A stretch of DNA of 64,000 nucleotides from an uncultured Bdellovibrionales bacterium (GCA_964631745.1 CAZVWV010000002.1:999-64998); one strand, 5' to 3'. Positions 1 to 16,898 are shown, counted from the stretch's first letter. Program-made: numbers and translations. Notes: a model not told the origin generated them from the sequence alone.

Positions 1-482
1 ATCACCAAGTCCAGATACAACCAGAAACAGAAACGCTAAACGCCCTAGTAGAACTAACCCACTCCGAACGCACCGCCAAGGATGAAATCCTAATCTGGGG
101 CTACCTACCCCAATTCTATCTGCTCACCAACTCCCTCTCCCCCTTTGAAGATATCTCATTTATCTCAATTGTGGGCGGGAACTTCACCTCCGATCCCAAT
201 ATAACCCAGCAAACCGACTCAATTATGGTCGCCAAGTTTGAAAAGCAAATGACCGACTCGCCCCCAAAATTCTTTGTGCAGTATCTAGTTAACTCCAACG
301 CCGTGCTCTCTGACCCGACCTTCTTCAAACAAAAGAGCCTGCCCAGCGTGCCGTATCCGCAGGCCGGGCTGGAGCTGCCAAATCAGAGAAGACTTCGCGA
401 GGTGCTTGGCTTGCGCTATCGTAAGATAGGAGAGATGGCTGGGCGGTATGATGGGGCCATTGTGTATGAGTTAGATCGATAA
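1..482 (+). CDS. C-terminal fragment (start lies beyond the window) of a membrane GT-C-type glycosyltransferase paralog. Its periplasmic C-terminal domain is homologous to the C-terminus of the 1326..2921 protein.
   Basis: The reading frame is open from base 3 to the stop at 480-482; the ORF track only reports it from an internal Met at 171. EILIWGYLPQFYLL...KFFVQYLVN...RYRKIGEMAGRYDGAIVYEL aligns with EVLVWGPAPSIYLY...IIFVYYET...RYERVATFEGEFDRAEVYKL at the C-terminus of the 1326..2921 product. Confidence 0.5.
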   Translation, partial: HQVQIQPETETLNALVELTHSERTAKDEILIWGYLPQFYLLTNSLSPFEDISFISIVGGNFTSDPNITQQTDSIMVAKFEKQMTDSPPKFFVQYLVNSNAVLSDPTFFKQKSLPSVPYPQAGLELPNQRRLREVLGLRYRKIGEMAGRYDGAIVYELDR

Positions 483-558
483 CGCCCGTTGATGCCTATA
501 CATCCCAGGGCATGACAACCACCGCTCCTCTCCCGGCGCCTTGAACAGCGCTACCGAT

Positions 559-966
559 CTAAGCAGCTTTACTCTTCGGTAATTCGGCCAACAAATTGGG
601 GTGTTGATTGAGCAGACGAAGAAGATTATCCGTGGAGCGCATCTGCAAAGTCTCCCCCCTTTCGTAGCGACTAAAGCCATTTGCTCCACCACCAAAGTAT
701 TGGGCGGCCTGTTGTTGGGTAAGCCTTAGTTTCTTTCGGATAGCTTTGACCTCGTCCGAAGTCAAAAAGCCGTCAATACCCGCTTGCCAGTCATGCAAAG
801 ACTTTCGTGTCACCCTGAGATCCTCCGCATCAAGAACCCCCTCGGAACAAACGCTACAGTATTCGCCCGGTTGAGCAAGCTTTAGCTTGTGGCCCTTGTA
901 CCTGAAGGTCTCTTGAATTGTTTTGCGATGCAGTTGGCCTTTCTTACAGAAGGGACATTTTCTCAT
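559..966 (-). CDS. mqsA: Type II antitoxin MqsA (zinc-ribbon plus HTH-XRE)
   Basis: N-terminal CPxC...CxxC zinc ribbon (CPFCKKG...CSVCSEG) and C-terminal HTH. Strong similarity to E. coli MqsA (LTQ.EA...FGGG.N.FSRYE.G...P....LLR.L..HP.LL). Confidence 0.85.
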   Translation of the reverse strand: MRKCPFCKKGQLHRKTIQETFRYKGHKLKLAQPGEYCSVCSEGVLDAEDLRVTRKSLHDWQAGIDGFLTSDEVKAIRKKLRLTQQQAAQYFGGGANGFSRYERGETLQMRSTDNLLRLLNQHPNLLAELPKSKAA

Positions 967-967
967 A

Positions 968-1270
968 CTATTTTTCCTTGAAAGAAACTATTAAATGGCC
1001 GCGTTCGTCTTTCATGAACTTTACATACAAGGCTAAATGACCAAATCGAGCATGATACACATCTTGCCACACTCGCGAATCCGCATAAGTCGTCATCGAC
1101 TTATAAAAGTTGCCGGATTTAAGATTTTGAATCACAGAAATCACATCCTCATCTCTTAACCCAAGCGCCCTGGCTGATATATGCGCGGTGCGAGTCATCC
1201 GCAACCCCGATACCGCAAGGAAAGTCTTCTTGATATCTTCTAAATTGTAGCTACAACGACGCTTATCCAT
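968..1270 (-). CDS. mqsR: Type II toxin MqsR (mRNA interferase)
   Basis: 100 aa. FYKSMTTYADSRVWQDVYHAR...LIVSFKEK matches E. coli MqsR (FYKSMTTYSDHTIWQDVYRPR...LIVSFKEK). It sits directly upstream of mqsA with a 1-nt gap. Confidence 0.85.
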   Translation of the reverse strand: MDKRRCSYNLEDIKKTFLAVSGLRMTRTAHISARALGLRDEDVISVIQNLKSGNFYKSMTTYADSRVWQDVYHARFGHLALYVKFMKDERGHLIVSFKEK

Positions 1271-1275
1271 TAACT

Positions 1276-1306
1276 AACCTGTAAGTGTAGTTTAACCTAT
1301 TAGGTT
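1276..1306. promoter_or_regulatory. Putative MqsA operator palindromes in the mqsRA promoter region
   Basis: AACCT-ATT-AGGTT perfect palindrome at 1294..1306 and an imperfect AACCT-GTA-AGTGT at 1276..1288. Both lie immediately upstream of the mqsR start and resemble the E. coli MqsA box AACCT(N)AGGTT. Confidence 0.5.
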
Positions 1307-1325
1307 AGATAAGTCTATGACCGTT

Positions 1326-2921
1326 TTACGAAGTTTGCCCATTAATTATTCCGGGCGCGACATAGGGCCTTAACTTATAAACCTCCGCACGGTCAAACTC
1401 ACCTTCAAAAGTGGCAACACGCTCGTAGCGGTTACTTATGAGATCCTTCACGTATTCTAAGTGCGGCAAATGTTTGAAATCCATCTGCTTCATCGGTGGT
1501 CCCAGTGGATGCCCTACATAAGAGTTGCTAGCAGGTCCAATAAATTCCGGATTACGGTCGCGCATGGTCTCATAATACACAAATATTATCGGCGCAGTGT
1601 CGGTCAGATAATTTTTAAGCAGCACAGACATTTGAGGGTCAATCCCTTGATCTTCAAGTTGATTAGATTCGTAATTGGCCCCCAAAGCCGAGTAGAGTCC
1701 CATGTCAGGAAAAGAAGTGCGGCGTTCACTATACAAATAGATGCTTGGGGCTGGTCCCCAAACGAGAACTTCTTCGCCGAAGTCGGAATTTTTCCGCACT
1801 ACCTCAGCCGCGTTTCGCATGACTAGATCGTCCACCGGCAAGGTCCACCTGCCCGCGCCAATTCCAACACAGATCGGGAATAGCATGTAGCTGCCGCAAA
1901 GGGCGAAGAGTAACCCTTTCAGGTAACGAAACGAAATGGCGCACGCTAATAACCCAGTACTCAGGACAACAGCGGGCTGAAGCACCAAAAGATAATGAAT
2001 ATAGTAGCGTCCGCCAAGCACTGAGTAGATAAGCCCTAACACAGTTACTGATAAGTAAATCACTCGGTAAGGCTTTGGAACGGCACGAACTGCGAGGCAA
2101 ATTAGGAAGCCGATTCCAATCAGCGCAGCTGCCATAGGCTCCGCATCAACTCCCTTTTTTAAAAACTCGAGAATTGAGAATGGAACACCCTTATTACGCA
2201 TCGATAATGGAAAAATCAGGGCATGCTGAACGCAGCTCCAAAGTGCGCCGTGTGCGTAGAGCCACAGCCCGGCTAAGCTCGGCACGAGAGCCACGAAAAC
2301 CATCGCGGTGGCAACGGCACGCTTCCGATTAAGCCAGCTTGAATGGCAGAGTGGTAAGAACATCATCGACCCATACAGAATAAGCCGTTGGTCCATCACG
2401 GCCATAATTCCAAGCAAGAAACCCGCTCCTGCCATCATCCTAGATGATTGCAATCGCCAAGCTCGCGCTAAACTCACAAGAAGCAACCATATTAGCGGCA
2501 ACGCCTGGCTTTGAAGCTCAAAAATAAATCCTACCCATCCATACAGCCAACCGATAGTTACTGCCACCGTCGCTAACAAGACGCGAACGTTTGGCAAACC
2601 TAATTCTTTGGCCAGCATAAATGCTAGAAGCGCTGTGATGCATATATAACTGGCACTCAAACACCAGACCGCGTCCGGCGAATTTAAGAACATCAGCGGA
2701 AAAACATATCCCATGAAATGGTGGGTCACGTCATCGACGTAAGGAATACGCCCGCTCTTAACTACCAGAGCGTGATAAATCATCTCTGTGATGTCGTAAG
2801 AGAGATAAGAATGGTTACGAAAGCTAGAAATCCCAAGGAAGGCGGTCATGATAAGCAGAATGAATATTCCTACCGTGACCGCCCAGGCCTTTGTGCGCTG
2901 ACAACATAGCTCTAAAATCAT
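1326..2921 (-). CDS. Polytopic membrane glycosyltransferase, GT-C fold (ArnT/PMT, GT39/GT83-like)
   Basis: 531 aa. About 11-13 predicted TM helices followed by a ~170-aa soluble C-terminal domain. The first loop has a conserved acidic/aromatic motif (GRIPYVDDVTHHFMGY). The architecture is that of polyprenyl-P-sugar dependent GT-C enzymes. Confidence 0.6.
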   Translation of the reverse strand: MILELCCQRTKAWAVTVGIFILLIMTAFLGISSFRNHSYLSYDITEMIYHALVVKSGRIPYVDDVTHHFMGYVFPLMFLNSPDAVWCLSASYICITALLAFMLAKELGLPNVRVLLATVAVTIGWLYGWVGFIFELQSQALPLIWLLLVSLARAWRLQSSRMMAGAGFLLGIMAVMDQRLILYGSMMFLPLCHSSWLNRKRAVATAMVFVALVPSLAGLWLYAHGALWSCVQHALIFPLSMRNKGVPFSILEFLKKGVDAEPMAAALIGIGFLICLAVRAVPKPYRVIYLSVTVLGLIYSVLGGRYYIHYLLVLQPAVVLSTGLLACAISFRYLKGLLFALCGSYMLFPICVGIGAGRWTLPVDDLVMRNAAEVVRKNSDFGEEVLVWGPAPSIYLYSERRTSFPDMGLYSALGANYESNQLEDQGIDPQMSVLLKNYLTDTAPIIFVYYETMRDRNPEFIGPASNSYVGHPLGPPMKQMDFKHLPHLEYVKDLISNRYERVATFEGEFDRAEVYKLRPYVAPGIINGQTS

Positions 2922-3026
2922 TTAGAGTATTAAATCAAAATCTTATTGTGCTCGAAAGAGCAGTAAGTCATGGCACGATGGTAGAGCTGGCTGGAAATTG
3001 CGGGTTCGCTCCCGAGCCGATCGGAT

Positions 3027-4308
3027 TTAATCTGAGGTCTTAGGAGCTGCATACTGCATTAGTTTTCGATCCAAAAGTAGTATTGAACCGAAAAGAACAC
3101 ATTTCAACAACCAAGCCACCAAGTTATACCCTAAACTCGGCAAAACAGTATAAACCTGGAAACAAAACGCAAGACTGAGCCAGCATTTGCTATATGCGAC
3201 CCAATGAAACAATTTTTGCGACTCCACCATCAAGAGCGTTACCGGCACGATAACTAAGAACTCCTCAAAATGCCCGATATATGGACTGAACAGCAAATAC
3301 ACCGCCATTATATAAATAAGTCCTCGCAACGCCCTGGCGTGCGAGTTTACCTCCACACCAAAAGCTCGCAAACTCGCCAAGCACACCCAGATAAGGAGCG
3401 CGCTCAGGGCACTCGCAAGGCCTTGTGCCAATCGGATTCCGAGAAAAGGCGCAAAGACCCGAATAAAGGTACAGTCTATAAAATCTAACGACCAGAATTT
3501 ATAGGGGCCTTCAAAAGCAGCGCCCGAGTAAGCCCGAAGTGCTGCAAGGTGTTCCCAAAGTATCCCGATCCCCCACCGCGCCGAGACAAACGTCATCGCC
3601 ACCAATAAAAACGTTAAGCCCAGCATCAGCGCCTTGAAACGCCTCGCGAAAATCAATATGGCAGCTCCACAAAGTAAATAAGGGAATTTAATCCCAAGAA
3701 GCAGGATACCAAAACCCATTACCAGATCCCGAGTTATAGTGGCTGATTGAGTAGCGTAGTAAAATAGAAGTAGTAGAAGCCCCGCCGCAAAAATCGAGCT
3801 CTGTCCGAGCATAACCGCCCGCACAAATGGGGAAGAAAAAATGAACGGCAAAATTAAAAGCAGCGGACCATGCCCAATTAGCCCGACAGGCTCAGAGCAG
3901 CGCGTCACCCGGAGCAACCCGTAAAGAAGTATTAAGCATGAAAGGCCGACAAAGTGCATAGGCCAATTGAGGCGAGAGGTGCAGCGCTACTGTAAAGGGA
4001 TACCATACAAGAATAGCAACCGGCCCAACCCCCACCGGCATTACGCCACTAGGCACAGACCCAAAATACGCCGTTAAGCCGTCAATTTGCGACTGCAATG
4101 TATAGATACTCCCAATCTTGTTCGACCAAAGTTCGTCGATTAGTATGAGATGATAGGTAAAGTCTTGAACTCTAAGCAGGCCGAAGTTCGAGGTAATTAA
4201 TCGTTGATTAGCGGCATTTATCAGATAAACAGTGATAACCAAGATACTGAAAACAAGTACGAAAAAGGCTGCGGTATGGGCTCTCTTCTGGTTAATCGTT
4301 GCCTGCAT
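3027..4308 (-). pseudogene. Polytopic membrane protein, putative GT-C/DUF2029-like glycosyltransferase. It is split into two overlapping frames (3892..4308 is the N-terminal part, 3027..3959 the C-terminal part), an apparent frameshift.
   Basis: Two same-strand ORFs overlap by 68 nt in different frames. Both are very hydrophobic and multi-TM. The combined length of about 427 aa is typical for a single membrane GT. Confidence 0.4.
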
Positions 4309-4603
4309 GAATGTGTTATCCGTTATGTGGTGGTTTAACTTAGACTACCTTACCACCGACCTAGCCCAACTAATCTACCATGCGAAAGAGTTGGCCATCG
4401 GGCGAATCCCATATCGCGACATATTTAGCCACCACTTTTTGGGGCTGCTGCTACCACTTCGTGTTATAGACATAATATGGTCGATCTCCCCCGGCCAGCA
4501 ATGGGCACTTTGTCTGGCCTATAATTTTTGCAATGCTATTCTGATCTTTCTCATAGTTCGCGAACTCGCCAGCCCCCGCGAAGCAGCCGTAAGCGGTCAC
4601 TGA
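4232..4603 (+). pseudogene. N-terminal 123-aa fragment of a GT-C glycosyltransferase paralog, truncated by an IS66-family remnant
   Basis: DYLTTDLAQLIYHAKELAIGRIPYRDIFSHHFLGLLLPL aligns with YDITEMIYHALVVKSGRIPYVDDVTHHFMGYVFPL of the 1326..2921 protein. The ORF stops inside the IS66 terminal inverted repeat (GTAAGCG at 4589). Confidence 0.5.
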
Positions 4604-5163
4604 GGCGCGTTATTGCGCAGGCGAATTTTCCAATTTTTTAGCATTCCACTCCGCCGCCCAAAGCCGTGGCGTAAGCTCTGCCACCTTAGCCATGGGGGTG
4701 GAGTCTACACGCTGCAGCACGTCTACGAAATAATCGAACGGTCGCACGCCATGCAACCGGCACGCTGCCACTAAGGATTGCACTATGGCCACCACCTTGG
4801 CGCCAACCTCAGTCCAACAAAACATCCAGTTTTTGCGCCCCATAGGGATAGGTCGTAAGGTACGTTCAAGCTTGTTGTTATCGATGGGAACCGCCGGGTC
4901 GCCCAAAAATACGCGTAGCTCTGCTTCGGCGCGAAGCGCGTGACTGGCAGCTTTGAGAAATGCATTAGATGGTAAAAGCGCCTTGGTCAGCTGCTCAGCC
5001 CGCAGCCAGTTAAAAAACTCATCCACTATCGGACGGGAATGTCGGTCCCGGGCCTTTAGCCTCTCTTCCAAAGAGGCATCTTTAACCACTTCCTCGATAT
5101 CGTAAAGCCGGCGGATATACTCCAGCGCCTTATCACTTAGTTCCGGTTCATACTGCTTTGCTT
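4589..5163 (-). mobile_element. IS66-family remnant. It encodes only the C-terminal ~200 aa of transposase TnpC and is delimited by the characteristic GTAAGCG terminal repeat.
   Basis: ORF 4610..5242 encodes EAKQYEPELSD...VDSTPMAKVAELTPRLWAAEWNAKKLENSPAQ. This is near-identical to ORF 17997..18605 on the opposite strand. The DNA terminus GTAAGCG at 4589..4595 is the typical IS66 end. Confidence 0.8.
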
Positions 5164-5350
5164 CAAAAATAATTGCGTGCGCACTTGGTAAGTTGTCAGG
5201 GAGTGATGAAGATTCGCTAGACACAAAAATTATGTAGCACAATAATTTTCCTGATGCATTATTTTCTCTTCATTCTCGTAAAGAAAATAGCAACTTCTTT
5301 AACTGCAGCCCTTCTAGCACACACATCAGCTCGCGGTAACTTATCTCTTC

Positions 5351-5427
5351 CGTGTGTGGACTCCACCCCCATGTCTAAGGTGGCAGAGCTTACGCCAAGG
5401 CTTTGGGCGGCGGAGGGGATGCTAAAA
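5351..5427 (+). repeat. Third, 77-bp fragment of the same IS66 3' region (it encodes VDSTPMSKVAELTPRLWAAE), in direct orientation to the right copy
   Basis: 5353..5427 matches 18506..18580 with 8 substitutions. It lies 190 bp from the oppositely oriented left remnant. Confidence 0.7.
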
Positions 5428-5466
5428 ACCTGCAAGAGCAATTTCAAAATTCTAGCTTCGCTTGAC

Positions 5467-6912
5467 TTAGTCCTTACCAACGGCGTTCTTTCGAATCCAT
5501 AATTGAACGCGCCGGTTATTTGATTTTATTAGTGAGAAATTACTATTAAGATACCGCTGAATATCCAGACCCTCTCTAGTCATGCGCTCATTGAGCGCCA
5601 AGAATCTTTCATGATTTTTTGGATCGATTACGATTACCTTGGCAACATCAAGAATACCGGGCATCGCCAAAGCAGAGACAGATTCATAAAACCCACAGCC
5701 AACTCCCATGGTGGTCAAAATTGGGTCTCTAAGCTTCTTACTAAGAAAGCAAAGCGAAGGGTCCGCAAAAACTAACGCCGAGGATTCGTGTGGGATATTG
5801 TCATCTAGATCTTTTGCCAAGAACCTTTGTTGATCTCTCGGTTGCCATTTCTGGAACTGGAAAGAAAGAGAAGTTACACAAATTGGATAGATCACGAGAA
5901 TACTAAACATCACAGCAAAATAGATTAGCTTGAGGCTATTTCTTTTTAGAGAGCTCTGCATGAGTTGCCAGATACCGGTAAAGGCAATCAACTTTACGAA
6001 TGGCGCGGCTAATATTATATAGTGAGGATAGGTACGGAAATAGAGGGGCAGCAGCGACGCAATCAGTGCAACAAACGCAGCCACTAAAATTTCAAACACG
6101 CATCTTGGCATTGGCAAAGCTACCATCCACAGCAAAGGGACGATGACAGGCGCAAGTAACAGGGTAAGTCGAGCCAATATTTTCCAGTCAAAAGAGAACC
6201 CGGTATAGTGCCCACCCGACAGCGTATGCAATAAGTCGACAGGCGATACACCACCGATAATATATAAGGCCGAGAAACAAAGAATAATGGGGATTGTGTA
6301 TCCGATTATAAAAATGAGTATTCGTTTAATTCTAGTTTCAATATTGAATGAGTTACGCAAAGTTAATAACAGCAAACAGGGAACAATAAATAATCCAAAC
6401 TGCTTGTAAAGAAACGCGAGACCGCTGCAATACCCTGAGAAAAAGACACCTTGAATGGGGTAACGAACGAGCAAGTAGAACGAAAATAAACTCAGTAGAG
6501 CCACAAACGGTTCGAGGACGATGTAAGTACCTTCGTAGTAGAACGTCATAAATAGAAGAGCCAGGGCGCCAAGGGTACTCAAGTTGGGGTCTTTGGTAAT
6601 TATCCTTAGGAGCTTATAAAGTATCCACGCTGTAATAAGCTGAACTACGACTAACATCGATAGGTAGATGGAATAATCAGCTTCTCGATTACTCACCCAG
6701 GCAATAACAGCAAAAGTAAATATTCCGAAAGGTGTGTATCCACAACTAAAATCCCTATAAAGGACCAATCCGTTGGATACATAATTCGCGGCACGCAAGT
6801 AGGCACCCGCATCTGGGTTGATTGGAGCAAACTCAATAATCGAACCCGCTGCTAATGCAAAGATGCAACTTAGTACAATATTTAGAAAAACGATGATTCT
6901 TCTGGGCGACAT
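5467..6912 (-). CDS. Polytopic membrane protein, probable GT-C-fold glycosyltransferase paralog
   Basis: 481 aa with at least 11 TM helices. The first-loop motif GLVLYRDFSCGYTPFG resembles that of the 1326..2921 protein, and there is a C-terminal soluble domain. It directly abuts the GT2 gene with a 0-nt gap. Confidence 0.5.
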   Translation of the reverse strand: MSPRRIIVFLNIVLSCIFALAAGSIIEFAPINPDAGAYLRAANYVSNGLVLYRDFSCGYTPFGIFTFAVIAWVSNREADYSIYLSMLVVVQLITAWILYKLLRIITKDPNLSTLGALALLFMTFYYEGTYIVLEPFVALLSLFSFYLLVRYPIQGVFFSGYCSGLAFLYKQFGLFIVPCLLLLTLRNSFNIETRIKRILIFIIGYTIPIILCFSALYIIGGVSPVDLLHTLSGGHYTGFSFDWKILARLTLLLAPVIVPLLWMVALPMPRCVFEILVAAFVALIASLLPLYFRTYPHYIILAAPFVKLIAFTGIWQLMQSSLKRNSLKLIYFAVMFSILVIYPICVTSLSFQFQKWQPRDQQRFLAKDLDDNIPHESSALVFADPSLCFLSKKLRDPILTTMGVGCGFYESVSALAMPGILDVAKVIVIDPKNHERFLALNERMTREGLDIQRYLNSNFSLIKSNNRRVQLWIRKNAVGKD

Positions 6913-7827
6913 CTAGTCAAGTTGTTTGTCAACTACATAGTTTGGGCGACCTTTAACTTCGTCTAAGATTCGCCAAATATATTCGCCAAGTATTCCCAGC
7001 ATGAACATAATGATGCCGCCAATAATAAGCAATAGCATCATAATTGGTGCCCACCCTTGGAAGGGAATCATATGCGCGTAGTACGCCCAAATGATAGTCA
7101 AGGCGTACAAGAAGCCACTGACAGCAAAGCCTCCCCCTACCACTGTGAGCAAACGAATCGGCAAATAGCTAACGTTCAAAAATGCAGAATAAAAATTCCT
7201 GAACCGTTTTACAGTATTATACTGCGATTTACCCGTTTTCCGCCGCAACTTGTCATAAGGGATAAATTTAGTTCTATAACCAGTCCATAAAATGTCATAT
7301 TGGTAGAAACGATTTCTTTCGCTCAAAGAATTTATAACATTCAATACTTTTCGGTCGAGCAAGGCGAAATCAAATCCACCAGGCGGAACATTTGGCAAGA
7401 GCAACCAATAAAAAATACGTGATGTTAATTTCCTGGCGAAGGAAGTTTGGTGAGTTCGTCTATAGCTAATGACGATTTCGCTCCCTTCCTCCCATGCCTT
7501 GATCATAGGAACACACTGCTCAGGTGGATCTTGTAAATCTGCGGCCATGTTAATCACACATTCACCGCGCGCATATTGCCAACCCGCCAGAATTGCAGCC
7601 ATTTGACCAAAATTCCTGGTAAAAGAGATAACCCGCACCTTCGCGTCACGTTCTTTTAGAGCCAATAATTCTACTAGAGAGGCATCTGTCGACCCATCAT
7701 TTACGAACAGTAATTCGTAAGAATGATGCGGGAAATGGACTGCAAATTCACCCACAATTCGCTCGTAAAGCGGCATTAGCGAACCGGCATTCTGATAAAC
7801 TGGAAAACAAACTGAAATGATACTCAC
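6913..7827 (-). CDS. GT2 polyprenyl-phosphate glycosyltransferase (ArnC/GtrB/DPM1-like) with two C-terminal TM helices
   Basis: VCFPVYQN...NDGSTD...DLQDPPE motifs of GT-A family 2, followed by the C-terminal hydrophobic hairpin typical of ArnC/GtrB. Confidence 0.8.
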   Translation of the reverse strand: MSIISVCFPVYQNAGSLMPLYERIVGEFAVHFPHHSYELLFVNDGSTDASLVELLALKERDAKVRVISFTRNFGQMAAILAGWQYARGECVINMAADLQDPPEQCVPMIKAWEEGSEIVISYRRTHQTSFARKLTSRIFYWLLLPNVPPGGFDFALLDRKVLNVINSLSERNRFYQYDILWTGYRTKFIPYDKLRRKTGKSQYNTVKRFRNFYSAFLNVSYLPIRLLTVVGGGFAVSGFLYALTIIWAYYAHMIPFQGWAPIMMLLLIIGGIIMFMLGILGEYIWRILDEVKGRPNYVVDKQLD

Positions 7828-8098
7828 GTTTCACACATGTTTATTCGATGTAGCTTGCCGTCCTAGGCCCTCATGAAGACCACACTGCACGAGAGTCACG
7901 ACACAAGCTGCATAACAAAACGCTGACCTACCATGGGTTGCCAGTCCACGGGGAAACTACCTCGCCATCCTGTTTACACGTGCGGAGTGGCGGAACTACC
8001 ATTCTTCGCGCCGGCTTGCAATGACTTGCACGATTTTCCATATCTCTTGCCCCCTCGTCCCGGAATCTATTCTCCGACTGGCATGGGAAATAGCACCA

Positions 8099-8839
8099 TT
8101 ACTTTCCCTTTTCACAAACGAGTACAATGCTAGAGCAAAGCTCGGGATAAAGCTGCCCCAATTCATAGCATCCTTTCAAATATTCATCTGAAACAATGTC
8201 CGTAGCAAGAATTCTATCCCATTGAAAGTTAGCAAGGGCCTTAAAAAAAACACCCGCTCTGTATAACACTGAAAATCCCGATGCCCGAGCATCGCGCTCA
8301 AGAGTATCGAGACTATAGGTAATTCTGTGACCATGGGCAGCTTCGGCAGCGGTTACAGCGGAATTATGCGTAATTAGTCCCATTTTAACAGCAATTTGTC
8401 GTGAAGGAGCATTAGCATTGGGGCAAACCAAGAAAAATCTACCATCATCCGTTACCCATTCTGTATTCACCCGCTTTAAGATTTCAACGGGGTTGTCCGC
8501 ATGTTCAAGAACGTGGATCATCAGAATATTATCAAATCGACACGGCAGCACTAAATCTTCGAAACGGCCATGAACAAAATTGATCTTCTTCGGTAGGCGA
8601 CTACGAGCGATGCGCAAAGCATCCGAAGACGCGTCGACACAAGTGATCTCATCAAAATGACCCAAAATTCGTTCGGTAAAATCACCTTGAAAACTGCCAA
8701 GTTCAAGAGCCTTCCCAGCTCTAAAAAATGGAGCAATGGTGCGAAGCACAAACGGGTGCATCACTTCGTAGTCAAAGCGATAGGCATACTTGCGCACTTC
8801 GTTATCTTTACATTCTTTATTGTAATCTCTGCTTGACAT
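8099..8839 (-). CDS. Class I SAM-dependent methyltransferase
   Basis: Motif I ALELGSFQGDFT and motif II/III ILMIHVLEHADNP. It is paralogous to the 13318..14058 product; both end in a PELC/PELSCG region. Confidence 0.75.
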   Translation of the reverse strand: MSSRDYNKECKDNEVRKYAYRFDYEVMHPFVLRTIAPFFRAGKALELGSFQGDFTERILGHFDEITCVDASSDALRIARSRLPKKINFVHGRFEDLVLPCRFDNILMIHVLEHADNPVEILKRVNTEWVTDDGRFFLVCPNANAPSRQIAVKMGLITHNSAVTAAEAAHGHRITYSLDTLERDARASGFSVLYRAGVFFKALANFQWDRILATDIVSDEYLKGCYELGQLYPELCSSIVLVCEKGK

Positions 8840-8899
8840 CGAAATTAAGTGTATATTTTAAGTCGCCAAATTGGAGCTCGGTCATAAATTATATTAAAA

Positions 8900-9856
8900 T
8901 CACAGTTCGACCAATTGCGCCATACCGAAACCCGTCTTGCCAAATTCATTGCCATTATAGAGTAGATAGATCTGTTCATCGCATCGAAATATATGGGGAT
9001 AGCAAAGCATTTGGGAATCCCAGCCACTTTCTGAACGATTTAATCCTCCCCTCTTGTCATCGCGAATCCAATTGACTAAATCCATCGAACGGGCATAGCC
9101 AAGCCGATAACTCCGTTGCTTTCCTGATCTAAACCCCGTAGCGTGGCGATAACAGAAATACATATGGTAGCAATCATCAATTTTAATCACGCTTGGAAGC
9201 GCCTGACACTCATTTTCGTCTAAAACAGTCTCGATAAGCTGCTTACTGTCACGTTGCCAATGAACTCCGTCCACCGACTGTGCCTGAGCAATGCGGTAAA
9301 CCCTTTGTGGCTCAGTTTCATACGGATCGCAAAACCACTTACATCCGTAGATATACCACATATAGTATCGCTCCCCAATTTTGGATACAAAAGCATCGCT
9401 GACCAAAAAGGGCTCAAGAAGCGAAGCACCTAGTACTGGGCCCTGACCAAGCTTCTCGAATGTCAGCCCTTGATCGTTACTCACCGCATAGCCAATCGAT
9501 GCCTCAGCTGATACAGAGACTCTTCTACTCCATCCAGTCGTGTATGCAATTATCTTATTCCCGTCCCGAAGAACATTCATCGGAAAAATGCCGTGTTCGT
9601 CGAAACATCCGGGTCCTCCCAAGGCGATGACAGGTTCTTGGGCGACAGCCCTAATTGATTTAAAATCCTTATCGAAATCGACATAAGCTACCAGACTCAA
9701 ATATTTTCCATTCTTGTCGAGCATTCGAGTCGAGAAATATACTCGCACAAAATCGTCAAAGACTAAGGCCTGGGGCGACTGTGCGAAAGCCGTACACTGC
9801 TTAGGAAGCTTATGGGTCGAAGGATCGAATATCTGCCCCAATTTTTTCCAAAACAT
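8900..9856 (-). CDS. BNR/Asp-box repeat beta-propeller protein (sialidase or glycoside-hydrolase-like fold), paralog 2
   Basis: Asp-box motifs SNDQGLTF and SVDGVHW. About 45% identical to the adjacent 9863..10828 product (MFWKKLGQIFDP vs MFSWKKLGRVLDP). Confidence 0.45.
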   Translation of the reverse strand: MFWKKLGQIFDPSTHKLPKQCTAFAQSPQALVFDDFVRVYFSTRMLDKNGKYLSLVAYVDFDKDFKSIRAVAQEPVIALGGPGCFDEHGIFPMNVLRDGNKIIAYTTGWSRRVSVSAEASIGYAVSNDQGLTFEKLGQGPVLGASLLEPFLVSDAFVSKIGERYYMWYIYGCKWFCDPYETEPQRVYRIAQAQSVDGVHWQRDSKQLIETVLDENECQALPSVIKIDDCYHMYFCYRHATGFRSGKQRSYRLGYARSMDLVNWIRDDKRGGLNRSESGWDSQMLCYPHIFRCDEQIYLLYNGNEFGKTGFGMAQLVEL

Positions 9857-9862
9857 TTCTTC

Positions 9863-10828
9863 TTAAGCCCCCGAGTAAGTGTCTAATTCTGCTAATCCAA
9901 AACCGACTCTGCCGATTTCATTCCCTTGGTAAAGCACGTACAGTTTACCGTCCAGTTCTACCAAATGAGCATAGCTTATAGATTCCGAGTCCCATCCGGA
10001 CCCCGACGTAGTCAAACCGGCTCGTCCATCCAAACGCACCCAATTATAAAGGTCGTCCGAGCAAGCATAGCCTATACGATAACCACGAGTTGGCTGAGTG
10101 AATCTCAGTGCATACCGGTATGAAAAAAACATATGATACTTATCTCTGAAGAAGGTGACATCGGGACTTGCTTGACATTCCTCTTCGCTCAAGACGGGAG
10201 GAATTAATGTCTTGCCAACTTTAGTCCAGTTCAACCCGTCACTCGAGTAGGCCATGCGTATCTTGTATACCGGTTCTGAACGAGTATCGGTCAGTAGCCA
10301 CTTATCGCCCGCGACGTACCAAAGGTACCACATGTCTTTAAATCTTCTAATTTTTGGACTCCCGATAACAAAGGGTTCGTCTGGGCTATAACCGAGCACT
10401 GGTCCTTCACCAAGACGTTGAAAAGTTTCTCCATTATCCCAGCTGACGGCGACACCAATAGCAGCATTAAACGGGACCGATTCGCATCTGGTCCAACCTG
10501 CATAATACAGTCTTATTTCGTCACCGTAGCGAATGACAGAAGCAGGATAGATACCAAATTCATCGAAGGTGCCTAAGCGGCCGAGCGGTAAGACTGGATT
10601 TGGAGCCAATGCTTTGACACAACGAAGATCTTTTCGATCTAAATCGACGTAACCAAGCTGGCTTACATACTGACCGGCACTATCGGGAGATGTACGAGAT
10701 GAGAAGAAGACTCGAACATTCTCGTCAAGCACCAAGGCTGAAGGAGCCTGCGCAAACTCTCGAATCCATGTTGAACTTGGTATTGAGGCGGGATCAAGAA
10801 CTCTACCCAATTTTTTCCATGAAAACAT
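9863..10828 (-). CDS. BNR/Asp-box repeat beta-propeller protein (sialidase or glycoside-hydrolase-like fold), paralog 1
   Basis: Asp-box motifs SWDNGETF and SSDGLNWT. Tandem paralog of the 8900..9856 product. Confidence 0.45.
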   Translation of the reverse strand: MFSWKKLGRVLDPASIPSSTWIREFAQAPSALVLDENVRVFFSSRTSPDSAGQYVSQLGYVDLDRKDLRCVKALAPNPVLPLGRLGTFDEFGIYPASVIRYGDEIRLYYAGWTRCESVPFNAAIGVAVSWDNGETFQRLGEGPVLGYSPDEPFVIGSPKIRRFKDMWYLWYVAGDKWLLTDTRSEPVYKIRMAYSSDGLNWTKVGKTLIPPVLSEEECQASPDVTFFRDKYHMFFSYRYALRFTQPTRGYRIGYACSDDLYNWVRLDGRAGLTTSGSGWDSESISYAHLVELDGKLYVLYQGNEIGRVGFGLAELDTYSGA

Positions 10829-10839
10829 ATTCCGTGCTG

Positions 10840-11511
10840 CTAAGACAGTTTACACAAACTCTCTGCACCGGTTTTCAAGCATCCATAGTAATAGTCGTTA
10901 AAACCAGCGGCTTCCATCATCTCGAAAATTTTATGCATATCGTATGTGACCCTATGTAATTCAAATCGACCATCGAATGTCGCAAAAGCAGCACGCGGGT
11001 CCTTGTCTCGTGGTTGCCCAACTGAGCCGGGGTTGCAATAAGCCTTGCTGCCATAGTCGCATAAGATCTGCTTATGAGTGTGCCCTGAAACAAAAAATTT
11101 GCCGACAATATTACGAAAATAGTCAGCAGTAGGTTGTACATACTCATCAATGGGATCCGACCAACCGCCGTGAACCAAATGCAGCTTACCTACTCTTCTA
11201 TGCAACGAAAGTTGGCTTAACCAGCTCAAGTTGTCCGCGGTAATAATCTTGCGTTGGTAGGTCAAACAATCGTTGACACTTCTGGAGCGCGGACAGAAGC
11301 CTCCGCCCACCATATACCAATCGTGATTGCCCATTATTGTGGGGATTTCACGCCCTATGAGCTCCTGACAACACTCATTGATCTGAGGATAATAGCCTAC
11401 GACATCACCAAGACAATACACCTGCGACACGCGCAGCGCATCTAGCTTCGCCAAGACCGATTGTAATGCTTCGTAATTGCCATGGATATCAGAAATGAGA
11501 CCAATTTTCAT
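10840..11511 (-). CDS. Calcineurin-like metallophosphoesterase (YfcE/MJ0936-type)
   Basis: DIHGN, GDvvgyyP, GNHD and GHTH motifs. Overlaps the upstream ATP-grasp gene by 4 nt. Confidence 0.75.
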   Translation of the reverse strand: MKIGLISDIHGNYEALQSVLAKLDALRVSQVYCLGDVVGYYPQINECCQELIGREIPTIMGNHDWYMVGGGFCPRSRSVNDCLTYQRKIITADNLSWLSQLSLHRRVGKLHLVHGGWSDPIDEYVQPTADYFRNIVGKFFVSGHTHKQILCDYGSKAYCNPGSVGQPRDKDPRAAFATFDGRFELHRVTYDMHKIFEMMEAAGFNDYYYGCLKTGAESLCKLS

Positions 11512-12470
11512 TTATACGAAACTAAGTCTTCCACATAACGTACCGCTTCGCCATATCTAAGCTTGGGCTGGCGCGGCAACTTCTTTTCTAGAAAAAAATC
11601 AACTAACATCGCAGACTCGTTGTAGCCAAAAGCAGTTCGCATAGATGTGGAAGAAGAGATGCGCGGGTTAATTTCAAGCAATTTTAAGGCCCCGGCGTGT
11701 TTTCTAAATTGAAAATTTGTAGGTCCCAGCGGGCGAAAATAGCGGCACAGTTCGCGCAAGACATCTTGCGCCTCATCGAGTTTCACAACTTCCGCCCTGT
11801 CCGTATATCCATCCTTTGATAACCTACGGCGCAAACTTATTTGCGCACAGTAATCGCCATTTCCATCACCAAAGACTGAAACAGTATACTCTTCCTCGTC
11901 ACTTCCCACAAGTGCTTGCGACATTAAAGACTTACCAATATTCTCACGATGGGCCAGAAATACAGTCCGATCTGCCACCCTCACTATTCCGCGAGCAGCA
12001 TGCCCATGACGCGGTTTCAATATGAACGGAACGCCGAACCGTTCAGCAAGAAGATCAAAATTGTCATCCAATGACGAATCTATAACAAATGCTGGATTGA
12101 GTTTTGCCAGGTGTCCATAAAAAACCCATTTGTCCTTGCAAAGGGCGATTAACTCCGGTCTGTTCAGCGCGAATATGCGGCTGTTTTTTGACATTTCATG
12201 CAAATTCTCACTCCACTTGTACATATCAATCTCAATTCCCGGGACAACTAAATCCACTGCATGCTTACGAATCGTTGCATCCAACCATCCTATATAGCCG
12301 TCGTCATTTGTATTCGGAGCAACTTCAAAAATATCACTGAAGTGTTCAGCGATAGTTCCCGTATAGATGGAAGTGCCAATCAGCGTCACGTTTTCATGGA
12401 CTTTCCGCAGGGAACGCAAAATTCCATAACCGATAATTCCACTGGCTCCCGAAACCAAAATTGTTGTCAT
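11508..12470 (-). CDS. ATP-grasp family ligase
   Basis: FILKPRHGHAARGI (the ATP-binding lysine loop) and LEINPRISSS (the E-x-N signature of ATP-grasp enzymes). N-terminal Rossmann-like GASGIIG. Confidence 0.75.
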   Translation of the reverse strand: MTTILVSGASGIIGYGILRSLRKVHENVTLIGTSIYTGTIAEHFSDIFEVAPNTNDDGYIGWLDATIRKHAVDLVVPGIEIDMYKWSENLHEMSKNSRIFALNRPELIALCKDKWVFYGHLAKLNPAFVIDSSLDDNFDLLAERFGVPFILKPRHGHAARGIVRVADRTVFLAHRENIGKSLMSQALVGSDEEEYTVSVFGDGNGDYCAQISLRRRLSKDGYTDRAEVVKLDEAQDVLRELCRYFRPLGPTNFQFRKHAGALKLLEINPRISSSTSMRTAFGYNESAMLVDFFLEKKLPRQPKLRYGEAVRYVEDLVSYK

Positions 12471-13354
12471 ATGTCTATCTTTGTCCTTCTCGAAGATGCT
12501 ATGCGATTTAACCCTTCCTGAATAGAAATCTTAGGGTAAAAACCGATTCGCTCATAAAGCGAGAAGTTCTTATGGAAGATCTTATCAGCAAGGTCGTCTC
12601 GCGTAATATCGAAGCTGACCTTCCCATGGCGCCCAAACGCCTCAAAGGCGGCATTAGCAACAGTTGAATAAGAATAATCCTGTACATACTGGCAATTGTA
12701 GATCCCTTCGAGACGCAGCTGTACAACTCGGCGCAAGACATCCGTGAGATCTTCGATGAAAATGTAATTTCGTAAAGCGTCATGGCTACCGTAAATGATG
12801 ATATCTCTGCCAGCTTGAGCTTGATCAATAATATGATACAAGAAAGGCTGATGTCGACGGAAGTTTTCAGTCTCACCGTAAATTTGAGAAGGACGCACGA
12901 TGCACAACGGGAGAGAGTTGGTTGCACAATGCATCACCGCCACATCCTCAGAATATCTTTTTGTCAAAGCATATGGTGAATACGAAGCAAAACCTTGCCC
13001 AATAGATGCAAAAATGCTCGAAACTTGAATAAAATGCTTTGCGCCCATTTTGGCGGCTTTTTCACAAAGCCTTAGTGTCCCAAGGACATTAATATTGATT
13101 GCGTCTGATAGTTGATTATACGACGCACCTCCGAAGTGCGCCGCGGTATTTATAACAACATCCAGATTCGTTGGAATTTCCATCTCCTCTGGACCTTCCG
13201 CCAAGTCAACATGAACATCACAAGAATTCCGGCCGCCGGTCACTACCTCACAGAATTCAGAAAGCGCAACTTTGAGTGCTACCCCTAATGCAGAATGACC
13301 CCCGACAATCAGAACTTTCATCGCATCCTCTGAATTTGGGCTAGTATTCCGCAC
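12467..13354 (-). CDS. NAD-dependent epimerase/dehydratase family (extended SDR) protein
   Basis: N-terminal MKVLIVGGHSALG nucleotide-binding motif and catalytic YALTK (YxxxK). Overlaps both neighbouring genes by 4 nt and 37 nt. Confidence 0.7.
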   Translation of the reverse strand: MRNTSPNSEDAMKVLIVGGHSALGVALKVALSEFCEVVTGGRNSCDVHVDLAEGPEEMEIPTNLDVVINTAAHFGGASYNQLSDAININVLGTLRLCEKAAKMGAKHFIQVSSIFASIGQGFASYSPYALTKRYSEDVAVMHCATNSLPLCIVRPSQIYGETENFRRHQPFLYHIIDQAQAGRDIIIYGSHDALRNYIFIEDLTDVLRRVVQLRLEGIYNCQYVQDYSYSTVANAAFEAFGRHGKVSFDITRDDLADKIFHKNFSLYERIGFYPKISIQEGLNRIASSRRTKIDI

Positions 13355-14058
13355 GAAAGTTCAGGATAACCAATTCCTACTTCACATAATGCGTCGATAA
13401 TCCGATGGTCTAGCTTCAAATCCAAAATTTGCTTGGTCGTAAACGGTTTGAGATAAATTCCTTCCAATTGCGCAATCTCACAACCTGCCTTATGCACGTC
13501 CTCTCTCAATGTACGAACAGTATAGTAGCGCTTGTGTCCAAGCAAAACATCATTGCCCGATAGCTCTTCGATGTTGGGCAGCAAGCCCGCAATGTGCCCC
13601 AGCCTTCGATTAAGGGCTTCGGCATTAGGCACGGCAACATATAGTGTCCCACCGGGCTCCAAAAATCTTGCATAACGCGAAATGAGAAAAGCGGGATTAT
13701 CCACATGCTCCAAAACAAAGCCCAAAACAATCAAGTCAAAAATCTCAGTGGTGTCAAAACTTTCGAAGAGTGACTCAACTACTTGCGCTGAACAATCTGG
13801 AAATCTTTGCTTAAAATGGACTGTGACGGCAGGCGAACCATCTATCACCACATGTCGTTTAAAATGCTTCGCGAATCTAGCGGTGGAATACCCATGACCC
13901 AATCCTAACTCTAATAAAGACTTCGCCTCACCTGACAAGGCAATGATTCGCTCAGGATACCAATTCAATAAAATTTCATTATCAAAATCGTACAAAATCC
14001 CACCGTTATAGGCAGTGACCGATCTATCCAATGTTTTATTCATAGGTGTGTCACTCAT
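13318..14058 (-). CDS. Class I SAM-dependent methyltransferase, paralog of the 8099..8839 product
   Basis: Motif I LELGLGHGYS, LIVLGFVLEHVDNP, and a C-terminus co-linear with the other methyltransferase. Confidence 0.7.
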   Translation of the reverse strand: MSDTPMNKTLDRSVTAYNGGILYDFDNEILLNWYPERIIALSGEAKSLLELGLGHGYSTARFAKHFKRHVVIDGSPAVTVHFKQRFPDCSAQVVESLFESFDTTEIFDLIVLGFVLEHVDNPAFLISRYARFLEPGGTLYVAVPNAEALNRRLGHIAGLLPNIEELSGNDVLLGHKRYYTVRTLREDVHKAGCEIAQLEGIYLKPFTTKQILDLKLDHRIIDALCEVGIGYPELSCGILAQIQRMR

Positions 14059-14064
14059 GTCTTA

Positions 14065-15150
14065 TTATTCGATTACTTCACCGACGATCCTAGCTATTTT
14101 GGAAACAATTTCAGACTCAAGGTCATGATACAATGGTAAGCATAGCACTCGCTTGGCTACGTCTTCCGTAATTGGAACGCTTTGCGGTTTAACATAATTA
14201 AGCCTATTCAGCGCAGGGTAAAAGTAGCGACGGGTCAATATAAGTTGATCTTTCAACGCAGCACGGACACGCAACAAAACGCTTTCTGATTCAAAAAGCA
14301 CAGGATAGTAAGAATAATTATATTGCAGACCTGGTTGGCTAGTCGGCCTGCTAAGCTTAGCCTTCCAAAATGGCGCCAGCAGCCTGTCGTATTCATCGGT
14401 TACGACTTTTCTTTTTTGAATGAGTGTTGGAACATGGGGAAGAACTGCTAGGCCCATAGCAGCGTGGAGTTCCGAATTCTTTGCATTAATTCCTAATCCA
14501 AAAAAAGCCTCGGGGCCATTGTGCCCGAAATTCATCAAGTAAAATATCTTGTGTGCGAGGTCATCGTCATTAGTTAAAATGGCCCCGCCTTCCCCAGTAT
14601 GAAATAGTTTAGTGGCATGGAAACTGACTGTCGAGATATCGCCGTTATTTAATATCGCTTTTCCATTCAAACGACACGCAAAAGCCTGGGCCCCGTCGTA
14701 TATGACCTTGAGACGATTAGCTTCTGCGATTTGCTGTATTTTTTCCACATCGCAACTATTACCGTAAACATGCACCGGCAAAATTGCCGATGTATTTCCA
14801 TTAATTTTTGCTTCTATACATGCAGGGTCGAGACAAAATGTGCGCGGGTCTATTTCAGAATAAATTGGCTCGCACCCCTCCCAACAAATCGCCGCGGTAG
14901 TGGCGACGTAACTGAAAGCGCTAGTGATAATTTCCCCACCAAGTCCTAGTGCGCGAATAGCAATTTGCAAGGCAATCGTGCCGTTGCTGACTAGATAAAC
15001 ATGCTTTACTCCGAACAGAGACTTAAGCTCGGCCTGCAAGCGCTGAGATAGAGGACCATGATTCGTAACCCAACGCTGGTCCCAAATTTGCCGCAGATAT
15101 TCCACATAGGTATTAAAATCGGGAACGAATGTTTTGGTTACGGTAATCAT
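14065..15150 (-). CDS. DegT/DnrJ/EryC1/StrS-family PLP-dependent sugar aminotransferase (ArnB/PseC-like)
   Basis: 361 aa. SFHATK carries the PLP lysine. Family-typical N-terminus (VTKTFVPDFNTYVEYLRQIWD..WVTNHGP) and C-terminal LCLPLYHDL. Confidence 0.85.
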   Translation of the reverse strand: MITVTKTFVPDFNTYVEYLRQIWDQRWVTNHGPLSQRLQAELKSLFGVKHVYLVSNGTIALQIAIRALGLGGEIITSAFSYVATTAAICWEGCEPIYSEIDPRTFCLDPACIEAKINGNTSAILPVHVYGNSCDVEKIQQIAEANRLKVIYDGAQAFACRLNGKAILNNGDISTVSFHATKLFHTGEGGAILTNDDDLAHKIFYLMNFGHNGPEAFFGLGINAKNSELHAAMGLAVLPHVPTLIQKRKVVTDEYDRLLAPFWKAKLSRPTSQPGLQYNYSYYPVLFESESVLLRVRAALKDQLILTRRYFYPALNRLNYVKPQSVPITEDVAKRVLCLPLYHDLESEIVSKIARIVGEVIE

Positions 15151-15629
15151 TGGTAACCGTCTCCAATTGTACCTGAATTGAAAAATTTACAGTTTGAAAT
15201 ATATTTGCACGATATTGTATACAATTCATCAATCCCTTTCGGATCTTTCTATCACTAAGTCACAGCTCGGTCGATAGCCCCAGGACAATCTCACTGGCAG
15301 CAACCTATCGTCCTATAATCTACTGGTATAATTGAGGAAATTGAAATGAGGCAGATAGGCAAGAGTTGCACCCCTGAATAGAGTTAGCATTATAGTCTAA
15401 CCTATCAGAAGAAAAGCCGATGGAAGCGCGTCTAGTAAATTTCGCACTACTGTCACATTTTTCAGTTATCAGGGATCCACGTCGCATATGCGGAAAGTTA
15501 CATCGGCTTGAGAAGATCTTATGCCTGTCTGTGTAGGGCATTATAAGCGGAGCTGAGAGTTGGGTTGAAACTCTGCGCAGGCCAGTAAGTGCAGAAATAG
15601 TATCGATTGACGGAAAGACGCTGCGGCGT

Positions 15630-16301
15630 TCATTTGACAAGGCAAACGGTTTGCATCCACTTCATATAGTGAGCGCACTGGTCATAGCGTCCGCCAGCGG
15701 CCACGCTCCCACACTCCCTGTATCCCTCCATCTGCACCTCCAGAATGGTGCCGGTATAGTAATCCAATCCGCGAGCAAGGCTCAGGTCGACCTCGATGTT
15801 AGCCAGCGCATCGGGATCCAAAAGCGATACAAGCTCCACCATTTTCGTCTTTGCCTTCCAAGCAGAGCTTATTGTTCACTTACAAGCTAGACAGAACGTA
15901 CCGCCTTCAGCCGCAGGAATTTTTACCTCCGCAAAGTCGGTGATTCTTTTGGCTTGGCTTTGGTCGATCTTGACCTTTTCAATGAGATCTTTAAGCACTG
16001 CATCTCTGCCGGTCTTGGCAATTTTATCCAGCACCGTTATGGCAGCCTTTGACTCGTCGGCATTCAGGCCAAGCGAGGCACAGATTCCAAGCAACAGCTT
16101 ACGGTTATTAATACGCATGGCATGTTTACCGACATCAAGCACCTTGAAGACCTGATGCATGGCCGAGCGGTAGGTGCAGCACCTGTGCCGGACTTTGGTC
16201 ATACATCCTGGGCGACACCGTGCGCTTTGTGGATTCAATTCCGCCGCGCGTGATGGTAACCGGCCGCACGTCGTAATTACCTCTCGGCATTCCGTGAACA
16301 T
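15630..16301 (-). pseudogene. Decayed fragment of a histidyl-tRNA synthetase-like (HisS/HisZ class II) gene with in-frame stops
   Basis: [16 protein letters not shown]...[10 protein letters not shown] is the HisRS motif-3 region. Upstream in the same frame, INNRKLLLGI...ITVLDKIAKTGRDAVLKDL.EKVKID matches the HisRS insertion domain. Two stop codons at 15876..15878 and 15870..15872 separate the pieces. The N-terminal motif 1/2 region and the anticodon-binding domain are absent. Confidence 0.5.
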
Positions 16302-16898
16302 TTAATAGCCGAAGAGATCGAGGCCGGAATTTCCGGGGCCGCCGCCGCCATCGGGCGGGATGTAAGCGATTATCCGGTAGGCGCTCTGTACCCAACCAGC
16401 GCGTTGGAGCTAGGCGGCCATCTTTATGTGGTGGAGTTCAGCGGAACAGGCGAGATTCAAAACCAAAAGGCTCTAGATGAATTCTCAGCCGTCTTAGACC
16501 GCATACTCTGCGCGCGAAGCGCGGATTACGCCGCCCACCGAAACTAAGGTTTCGGGCTTAAGCCGCCCCAAATAAAGCCTGTGCGACCTGGGTCTTTTGC
16601 GGATTGAATGAAATCACGCGGCAAGTTCGGCGGGCAGAATAAGGTGCCACGGATTATTAATCGGGGGAGGTGTTTGATGGGCTGGTGGCGTATGAGTGAG
16701 GAGGAGGAGCACTTGAGGGTCTATCTATGATGCAAGAGTGGCTGTCTATTACTAGCCCCATTTTGGATCAAAGATCACGACTCTTAATTGAAGCTATGGG
16801 TTCAGTTTTGTCCTTAAGCGGGTGATCGGGTCTTTCGCTAGGGCCCGGGAAAATCTATCGTCTTACAGGATTCAGGAATTAGAACAGGTAGGTCACTC

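Follow-up and report, generated by a model that had tools for sequence, protein, structure and literature searches.

A GtrB-type glycosyltransferase and its GT-C neighbour, beside a separate GT-C family and IS66 remnants, in an uncultured Bdellovibrionales bacterium

We describe positions 1..7827 of a 64-kb window (the window is the whole stretch of DNA that was analysed, 64,000 nucleotides) from an uncultured Bdellovibrionales bacterium. The region contains a gene for a glycosyltransferase of family GT2 and, next to it, several genes for polytopic membrane proteins that an earlier note on this DNA had read as ArnT/PMT-like GT-C glycosyltransferases. Every membrane open reading frame (ORF) named in that note, and the GT2 gene, is found at the given position in the ORF listing of the window. 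We label the ORFs A to F, and we also considered the cassette of genes beyond F, to position 17603. The features are as follows.

3..482, + strand: A, the last 159 codons of a predicted GT-C gene of the B family, encoding the soluble C-terminal domain; open from the window edge, with the gene start upstream of the window.
559..1270: an intact MqsR toxin / MqsA antitoxin pair between A and B (Pfam E-values 1e-28 and 7e-33).
1326..2921, - strand: B, intact, 531 amino acids; a many-helix membrane domain and a C-terminal alpha/beta domain at approximately residues 366-531.
3027..3959, - strand: C1, a polytopic membrane ORF of 310 amino acids with about eight hydrophobic segments; perhaps the 3' part of a gene with a frameshift.
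3892..4308, - strand: C2, a membrane ORF of 138 amino acids in another frame, overlapping C1 by 68 nucleotides; maybe the 5' part of the same gene.
4232..4603, + strand: D, an ORF of 123 amino acids whose family part is 4232..4588; the N-terminal approximately 119 codons, with transmembrane (TM) segment 1, loop 1 carrying GRIPYRD..HHFLG, and TM segment 2.
4589..5242, - strand: a fragment of a transposase of the IS66 family of insertion sequences (IS), 3' part only (Pfam DDE_Tnp_IS66, positions 161-283 of 284 of the hidden Markov model, HMM); the transposase part spans 4610..5242.
5347..5419, + strand: a second short IS66 3'-end remnant of 73 nucleotides, facing the first fragment, found by repeat analysis.
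5467..6912, - strand: E, a predicted divergent GT-C of 481 amino acids with about 10 TM segments; abuts the GT2 gene and lies downstream of it.
6913..7827, - strand: F, a predicted GtrB/ArnC-type GT2 of 304 amino acids with two C-terminal TM helices.
8099..17603, - strand (WbqC on the + strand): the cassette upstream of F, with Pfam matches to a methyltransferase, two GH130-like propellers, a metallophosphoesterase, an ATP-grasp protein, an epimerase, a methyltransferase and a DegT aminotransferase, then pseudogene debris and WbqC.

The product of F carries a GT2 domain (PF00535, E-value 2e-21) and two C-terminal TM segments (approximately residues 222-246 and 262-280). Its residues 4-300 align to residues 28-327 of GtrB sll0501 (structure 5EKP) with an E-value of 3e-55, and it matches ArnC structures with an E-value of 7e-36. 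F therefore combines the GT2 domain, the pair of C-terminal helices and the full-length homology by which GtrB/ArnC/DPMS-type enzymes are recognised, and by this homology it is a full-length GtrB/ArnC-type polyprenyl-phosphate glycosyltransferase, as the earlier note had proposed in describing a single ArnC/GtrB-type GT2. The best NCBIfam model for F is PgfS (NF047588; E-value 2.6e-56, 191.1 bits versus a cut-off of 500), and against ArnC (NF007986) it scores 139.8 bits (E-value 9e-41) versus an equivalog cut-off of 529 bits. Because both scores lie below the equivalog cut-offs, we place F in the family but do not regard it as an ortholog of ArnC or PgfS.

Among the membrane ORFs, A, B and D are recognisably related. 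A matches the C-terminal domain of B (B residues 383-517) with 27.5% identity over 138 amino acids (BLASTP E-value 2e-15), and D matches the N-terminus of B with 31% identity (E-value 2e-16); BLASTP finds nothing that links C or E with the other membrane ORFs. Direct scans of A, B, C1, C2, D and E found no match to any Pfam or NCBIfam model, GT-C models included, at an E-value of 0.1 or less. None of A to E reaches the gathering threshold of PMT_2 (PF13231) or matches an ArnT model, as a GT83 ArnT-like enzyme would, and the Pfam scans show neither the PMT N-terminal domain nor the luminal MIR domains that together mark CAZy family GT39. A word-indexed search of 5.8 billion proteins returned only B itself for B and nothing for E, and phmmer searches of both against the PDB sequences yielded no meaningful match. 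When 1.84 billion representatives were searched exhaustively with HMMER, 128 relatives of B were recovered, nearly all of them 500-530 amino acids long and at most 36% identical to it.

An alignment of 80 sequences of this family (A1), from which the family HMM and profile were made, reveals a distinct signature: D43..Y49..GRxPYRD..H67-H68-F..GY, D177-Q-R179, FP..YRN, GGR..Y310..P316 and LVWGY.P.IY. Five positions are invariant in the alignment (H68, D177, R179, Y310, P444) and D43 is conserved in at least 90% of the sequences. D43 lies directly after the first TM segment and is retained in D and E; it is a putative counterpart of the acidic loop-1 residue that serves GT-C enzymes as catalytic base or metal ligand (candidates for comparison are ArnT D55 and PglB D56). 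When run against all ORFs of the window, the family HMM recovers B, D (E-value 7e-38; HMM positions 5-116 only), A (6e-31) and E (4e-15), and nothing else. PMT_2 is matched weakly by 27 of the 80 family members in Pfam searches (best E-value 1e-8), and the best match of the family profile among PDB sequences is the O-mannosyltransferase TMEM260, at a non-significant E-value of 0.032.

With alignment A1 as input, AlphaFold2 gives a model of B with a predicted local distance difference test score (pLDDT) of 93 and a predicted template-modelling score of 0.92, consisting of a helical membrane domain and, from approximately residue 366, an alpha/beta domain. In a Foldseek search of the PDB with this model, ranks 1-35 are all GT-C-fold proteins (STT3/PglB/AglB, ALG9, AftD, ArnT, DPY19, AftB, Pmt4, ALG3, PIG-U, Emb and PimE); the resemblance to Pmt4 is one of the transmembrane fold only. 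The helical architecture of the model is thus that of solved GT-C enzymes, and B is, on its predicted structure, a GT-C-fold glycosyltransferase of a rare, unannotated family; A and D belong to the same family by homology. The description "ArnT/PMT-like GT-C" is correct for B, because of these Foldseek ranks, the weak PMT_2 matches and TMEM260 as the best profile match, and it extends by homology to A, D and E. Two other observations of the earlier note were sound: the shared first-loop motif is real, since it is the signature of the family in the 80-sequence alignment, and the two proteins said to share a soluble C-terminal domain are A and B.

E is the gene most closely tied to F. The stop codon of F and the start codon of E are separated by 0 nucleotides, and in one metagenome contig (L037) a 44%-identical homolog of E directly follows a 72%-identical homolog of F. 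E is similar to the B-family profile by hhalign (probability 96.5%, E-value 9e-10, 350 columns), an independent alignment gives 97.4%, and hmmsearch finds the similarity as well, with the E-value given above. It keeps the loop-1 aspartate (D34), a G..LYRD string and the R..Y..P motif. Through this profile homology E is a divergent GT-C glycosyltransferase, a remote relative of the B family, and it is likely the periplasmic transferase of a module that it forms with F.

The homologs of F in other genomes show where such a gene usually stands. We confirmed 314 relatives in metagenomes, with up to 72% identity, and examined the gene context in 80 fetched loci (L022-L101). In these loci the F homolog is typically the last gene of a cassette with the order DegT, WbqC, methyltransferase, two GH130-like five-bladed propellers, (a protein of approximately 150 amino acids), methyltransferase; the cassette proteins match across metagenome contigs with E-values of approximately 1e-100 to 1e-140. 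Downstream of the F homolog, where sequence is available, there is usually a GtrA protein of approximately 130 amino acids (PF04138, E-value 5e-19), followed by a large polytopic protein. The latter varies by locus and matches PMT_2, Glyco_transf_22 (ALG9-like), a GT87-like family, or nothing. The synthase and the GT-C of a three-component glycosylation system are thus encoded together here, where F and E abut, as they are in L037 and in the homologous loci.

In the window itself the cassette has the metallophosphoesterase, ATP-grasp and epimerase genes in addition, and the same is true of six of the fetched loci. Between the methyltransferase gene and the GT2 gene there are 271 nucleotides (7828-8098), versus approximately 0-50 nucleotides in the homologous metagenome loci, and the gene of approximately 150 amino acids that usually lies between one of the GH130-like genes (GH130a) and the methyltransferase is absent from the window cassette. 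Between DegT and WbqC, 15150-16900 holds 1.7 kb of short overlapping ORFs that look like pseudogene debris; one of these fragments presumably resembles a class II aminoacyl-tRNA synthetase / HisZ motif. We found no paper that describes the cassette, and a literature search on WbqC gave nothing relevant. The rest of the window consists of diderm housekeeping genes (the nuo operon, MlaA, Lgt). Its other large membrane ORFs were considered as additional GT-C candidates and rejected: they are nuo subunits, Lgt and an Asp-Al_Ex permease.

These observations lead us to read 1..7827 as a patchwork, in which one Gtr-type module (F and E) lies beside separate GT-C genes and the orphan gene C, amid IS66 scars, and not as an integrated system of five transferases. 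We put the probability of this reading at about 0.7. For the module we infer the following scheme, which covers the donor lipid and the acceptor as well as the catalytic residues and the place of action in the periplasm. At the cytoplasmic face of the inner membrane, F would load undecaprenyl phosphate with a sugar taken from a nucleotide sugar, and the upstream cassette, with its DegT, WbqC, methyltransferase and GH130-like proteins, probably makes or tailors this sugar. Once linked to the lipid, the sugar would have to be flipped across the membrane by a flippase, for which no gene was found in the window, and E would then transfer it to a periplasmic acceptor by means of the loop-1 aspartate D34, as in other GT-C enzymes. 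Plausible acceptors are lipopolysaccharide or outer-membrane glycoconjugates. A, B and D belong to a separate GT-C family, several old paralogs of which are usually present in a genome that carries it; these proteins should likewise need a polyprenyl-phosphate-linked donor, but nothing links them to F in particular.

Several points weigh against this reading. E lacks the His-His and Asp-Gln-Arg motifs, both of which are invariant in the B family, and reads GY and KQF at these places; because the two motifs are missing, the chemistry of E may differ. E matches no Pfam or NCBIfam model, and it is assigned to GT-C by profile homology at 16% identity. With a GtrA HMM made from 13 syntenic homologs we found no such gene in the 64-kb window, which leaves the module incomplete at this locus; a flippase gene may lie elsewhere in the genome. 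No small multi-TM ORFs lie outside the nuo operon in the window, although transporters of the SMR and MATE types were not specifically modelled. An F-like GT2 occurs within approximately 2 kb of a B-family gene in two loci (L003 and L018). Finally, B, C and D may lie near F because of a functional linkage that IS events have disrupted only in part.

IS events have left traces in the region. Three IS66-family fragments (4589-5242, 5347-5419 and 18048-18626) are present, all of them 3' ends only. The arms 4589-5167 and 18048-18626 form an inverted repeat of 579 nucleotides with 99% identity and bracket the whole cassette together with E and F, approximately 12.9 kb, which suggests a past inversion or the history of a composite element. 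The IS66 fragment has matches of only approximately 73%, to Aromatoleum and Acidithiobacillus plasmids. The family sequence of D ends where the IS66 fragment begins, at 4589. The earlier note was therefore right that one member is cut by an IS, and its picture of decaying genes agrees with this truncation and with the possible frameshift in C. Because the IS copies are themselves degraded fragments, the truncation of D is not reversible. We also looked for homopolymers of seven or more bases and for simple sequence repeats in 1..8000, and found none except CACACACA at 5318, inside the IS area; no repeat lies at the site of the frame change in C.

In the gene C (3027..4308), a three-frame translation shows C1 and C2 as two overlapping ORFs in different frames, and the polytopic gene looks frameshifted. 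The 5' ends of C2 (start 4308, - strand) and D (start 4232, + strand) overlap head-to-head by 77 nucleotides (4232-4308), which leaves no room for divergent promoters; therefore at least one of these starts or genes is unlikely to be functional, and D is truncated in any case. The N-terminus of D, which is rich in Lys, lies antisense to the sequence for the first hydrophobic helix of C2. We tested C as a reconstruction of 428 amino acids that joins both frames. It has no relatives in the protein database other than its own annotated version of 261 amino acids; jackhmmer found none, and a scan of metagenome contigs found none either. A single-sequence AlphaFold2 model has a pLDDT of 44 and is unusable. 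Hence the claim of one frameshifted member stands only in part: there are two overlapping ORFs in different frames, but there is no homolog to confirm the frameshift and no GT-C match. We regard C as an orphan polytopic membrane gene, possibly frameshifted.

The number of GT-C proteins in the region depends on C, and we see an even chance that C is not a GT-C at all but another polytopic envelope protein (e.g., a Wzy-type polymerase, an O-antigen-ligase-like protein or a transporter), in which case the "five" would really be four. In hhalign comparisons C resembles neither the B family (probability 0.2%) nor any of 12 clusters, built from the fetched loci, of polytopic and mostly GT-C-like membrane proteins (each below 1%). 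The reconstruction has no Pfam match even at an E-value of 10 or less, and C lacks a soluble C-terminal domain. Wzy proteins are notoriously orphan in sequence. However, the Pfam library searched includes Wzy_C and polysaccharide-flippase families, and these are silent as well, so that C matches no alternative family either; its loop 1 contains the string QDFTYH, which resembles the D..YH of the B family, and some GT-C families (GT87-like) are similar in size and likewise lack a soluble domain. Of the five GT-C proteins counted in the earlier note, A, B, D and E are supported by profile or fold; C matches no family tested.

How old are the paralogs of the B family? A is closest to a protein of another genome (P0036, 36% identity) and D is 50% identical to another (P0011), while their identities to B are only 27% and 31%. 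Because other genomes hold nearer relatives of A and D than B is, the paralogs of the window are old lineages and not recent duplicates. With a degenerate DNA pattern for GxxPY..HHFxGY we searched species-representative genomes (GTDB) and obtained 19 loci, 17 of which are true members by the family HMM. Most of them come from metagenome-assembled genomes (MAGs) of Bdellovibrionota/Oligoflexia, and several genomes carry 2-3 copies. In one of them (L005, positions 1-3096; Deltaproteobacteria/Bdellovibrionota MAG) a tandem pair lies near nucleotidyltransferase, methyltransferase, GT4 and epimerase genes; therefore local multiplication of the family occurs in other genomes too. In 8 of the 17 loci (L002, L007, L008, L013-L017) the gene order is an NYN-domain gene, dnaB and the GT-C gene. 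L015 is a Candidatus Dadabacteria MAG and the other seven are Bdellovibrionota-like MAGs. This dnaB-linked subgroup is the most distant subgroup of the family from A, B and D. A replicative helicase gene directly upstream is an unexpected housekeeping neighbourhood for a glycosyltransferase. The recurrent gene of approximately 485 amino acids upstream of B-family genes had been considered as a second GT-C and was rejected, as it is dnaB itself. Other relatives lie in unrelated polysaccharide loci. A literature search for GT-C enzymes in Bdellovibrio gave nothing relevant.

It is possible, though we hold it as a tentative and rather doubtful idea, that A, B and D together with the 128 cluster representatives constitute a new branch of GT-C enzymes, unclassified in Pfam and NCBIfam and mainly Bdellovibrionota/Oligoflexia-like, with a signature of its own (loop-1 Asp, GRxPYRD, His-His, DQR and a periplasmic alpha/beta domain). 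One paralog would be fixed next to dnaB and the others scattered in glycan loci. Such a branch could use an undescribed donor or acceptor, and several of its members here may draw on the tailored sugar of the cassette.

A second alternative, which we think unlikely, concerns the use of the sugar. In the earlier note one donor was thought to serve several acceptors: F would be the sole donor-loading enzyme, and its undecaprenyl-phosphate sugar would be used by E, by B, formerly by D, and perhaps by C and A, on different acceptors (lipid A, core, O-antigen, proteins). One GtrB-type GT2 has at least four genes or gene fragments of the GT-C type within 7 kb of it, and it is the only polyprenyl-phosphate GT2 that we saw in the window. 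Since no GT-C works without a polyprenyl-phosphate-linked donor, B could draw on the product of F. A precedent is the Pgf operon, in which one GT-A stands together with two GT-C enzymes (PMC12041528), all the more as PgfS is the best NCBIfam match of F; loci with multiple GT-C genes have been noted (PMC11127046); and the F-like GT2 genes near B-family genes in L003 and L018 point the same way. However, only E is coupled to F, as the abutting genes and the order in L037 show. Two IS66 remnants lie between the F-E pair and B, C and D, and the MqsRA pair further separates A. The conserved cassette in the metagenome loci carries as a rule one adjacent GT-C, and most relatives of B do not adjoin a GT2 of the F type. 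Proximity is weak evidence either way, because such genes need no linkage.

Very improbable, in our judgement, is the remaining alternative, also raised in the earlier note, of a contingency or variable family whose rapidly diversifying or phase-variable paralogs are switched by frameshifts and IS insertion: D is truncated by an IS66 fragment, the neighbouring C appears frameshifted, and related MAGs carry several paralogs each (including the tandem pair in L005), but the frame change itself has no repeat tract of the kind expected for phase variation and 1..8000 has none apart from the one named above, the degraded IS copies make the truncation irreversible, and the paralogs share only 27-31% identity and have closer counterparts in other genomes, which argues for old divergence.

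Outside the cytoplasm, GT-C enzymes modify lipid A, O-antigens, cell-wall polymers and proteins, and they influence interactions with phages, the immune system and antibiotics. The locus adds two elements to this picture. One is a rare GT-C family outside the current profile libraries, with a His-His/DQR signature and a divergent member, E, that is paired with a GtrB-type enzyme. The other is a sugar-tailoring cassette, widespread and apparently uncharacterised, whose last gene encodes a GtrB-type enzyme and which is paired with interchangeable GT-C proteins. Both may be useful for annotation (as new Pfam or CAZy seeds) and as biochemical targets.

How does the locus compare with known systems? 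In the three-component paradigm, a lipid-sugar synthase, a flippase and an interchangeable periplasmic GT-C act together with a lipid-linked monosaccharide as the donor (PMC11127046). The ArnC/ArnT pathway, which adds aminoarabinose to lipid A (by the GT2 ArnC and the GT83 ArnT), differs in several points. F scores far below the ArnC cut-off, and no homologs of ArnA, ArnD or ArnE/F were seen; B and E have no ArnT, GT83 or PMT_2 match of their own, and sequence identity to ArnT is approximately 10%. Unlike the PMT enzymes of GT39 and the TMEM260/DUF2723 proteins, the membrane proteins of the locus have no Pfam match at all, hence no MIR domain, and they carry a small alpha/beta domain at the C-terminus. 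The loop-1 motif of PMT enzymes is Asp-Glu, whereas loop 1 of the B family reads D..YH..GRxPYRD..HHF.

The streptococcal Pgf operon combines one GT-A (PgfS) with two GT-C enzymes, PgfM1 and PgfM2 (PMC12041528). Our locus resembles it in having one GtrB-type enzyme and more than one GT-C, and in the best NCBIfam match of F. However, PgfM1 and PgfM2 are YfhO-family GT-C proteins of Gram-positives, F lies below the PgfS cut-off, and the host here is a diderm (MlaA, Lgt, nuo). The Gtr systems of Shigella and Salmonella, like those related to them, consist of the flippase GtrA, the undecaprenyl-phosphate-glucose synthase GtrB and a serotype-specific GT-C (Gtr*). As in these systems, F matches GtrB over its full length, the GT-C gene E directly follows F, and in related loci GtrA and a variable GT-C follow the same GT2. 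Unlike them, the window has no GtrA, E falls in no described Gtr* family, and F ends a large tailoring cassette with an aminotransferase, methyltransferases and GH130-like proteins; because of this cassette, the sugar is probably not plain glucose. In architecture and logic the locus follows the known three-component glycosylation systems, to which it makes an incremental rather than a conceptual addition.

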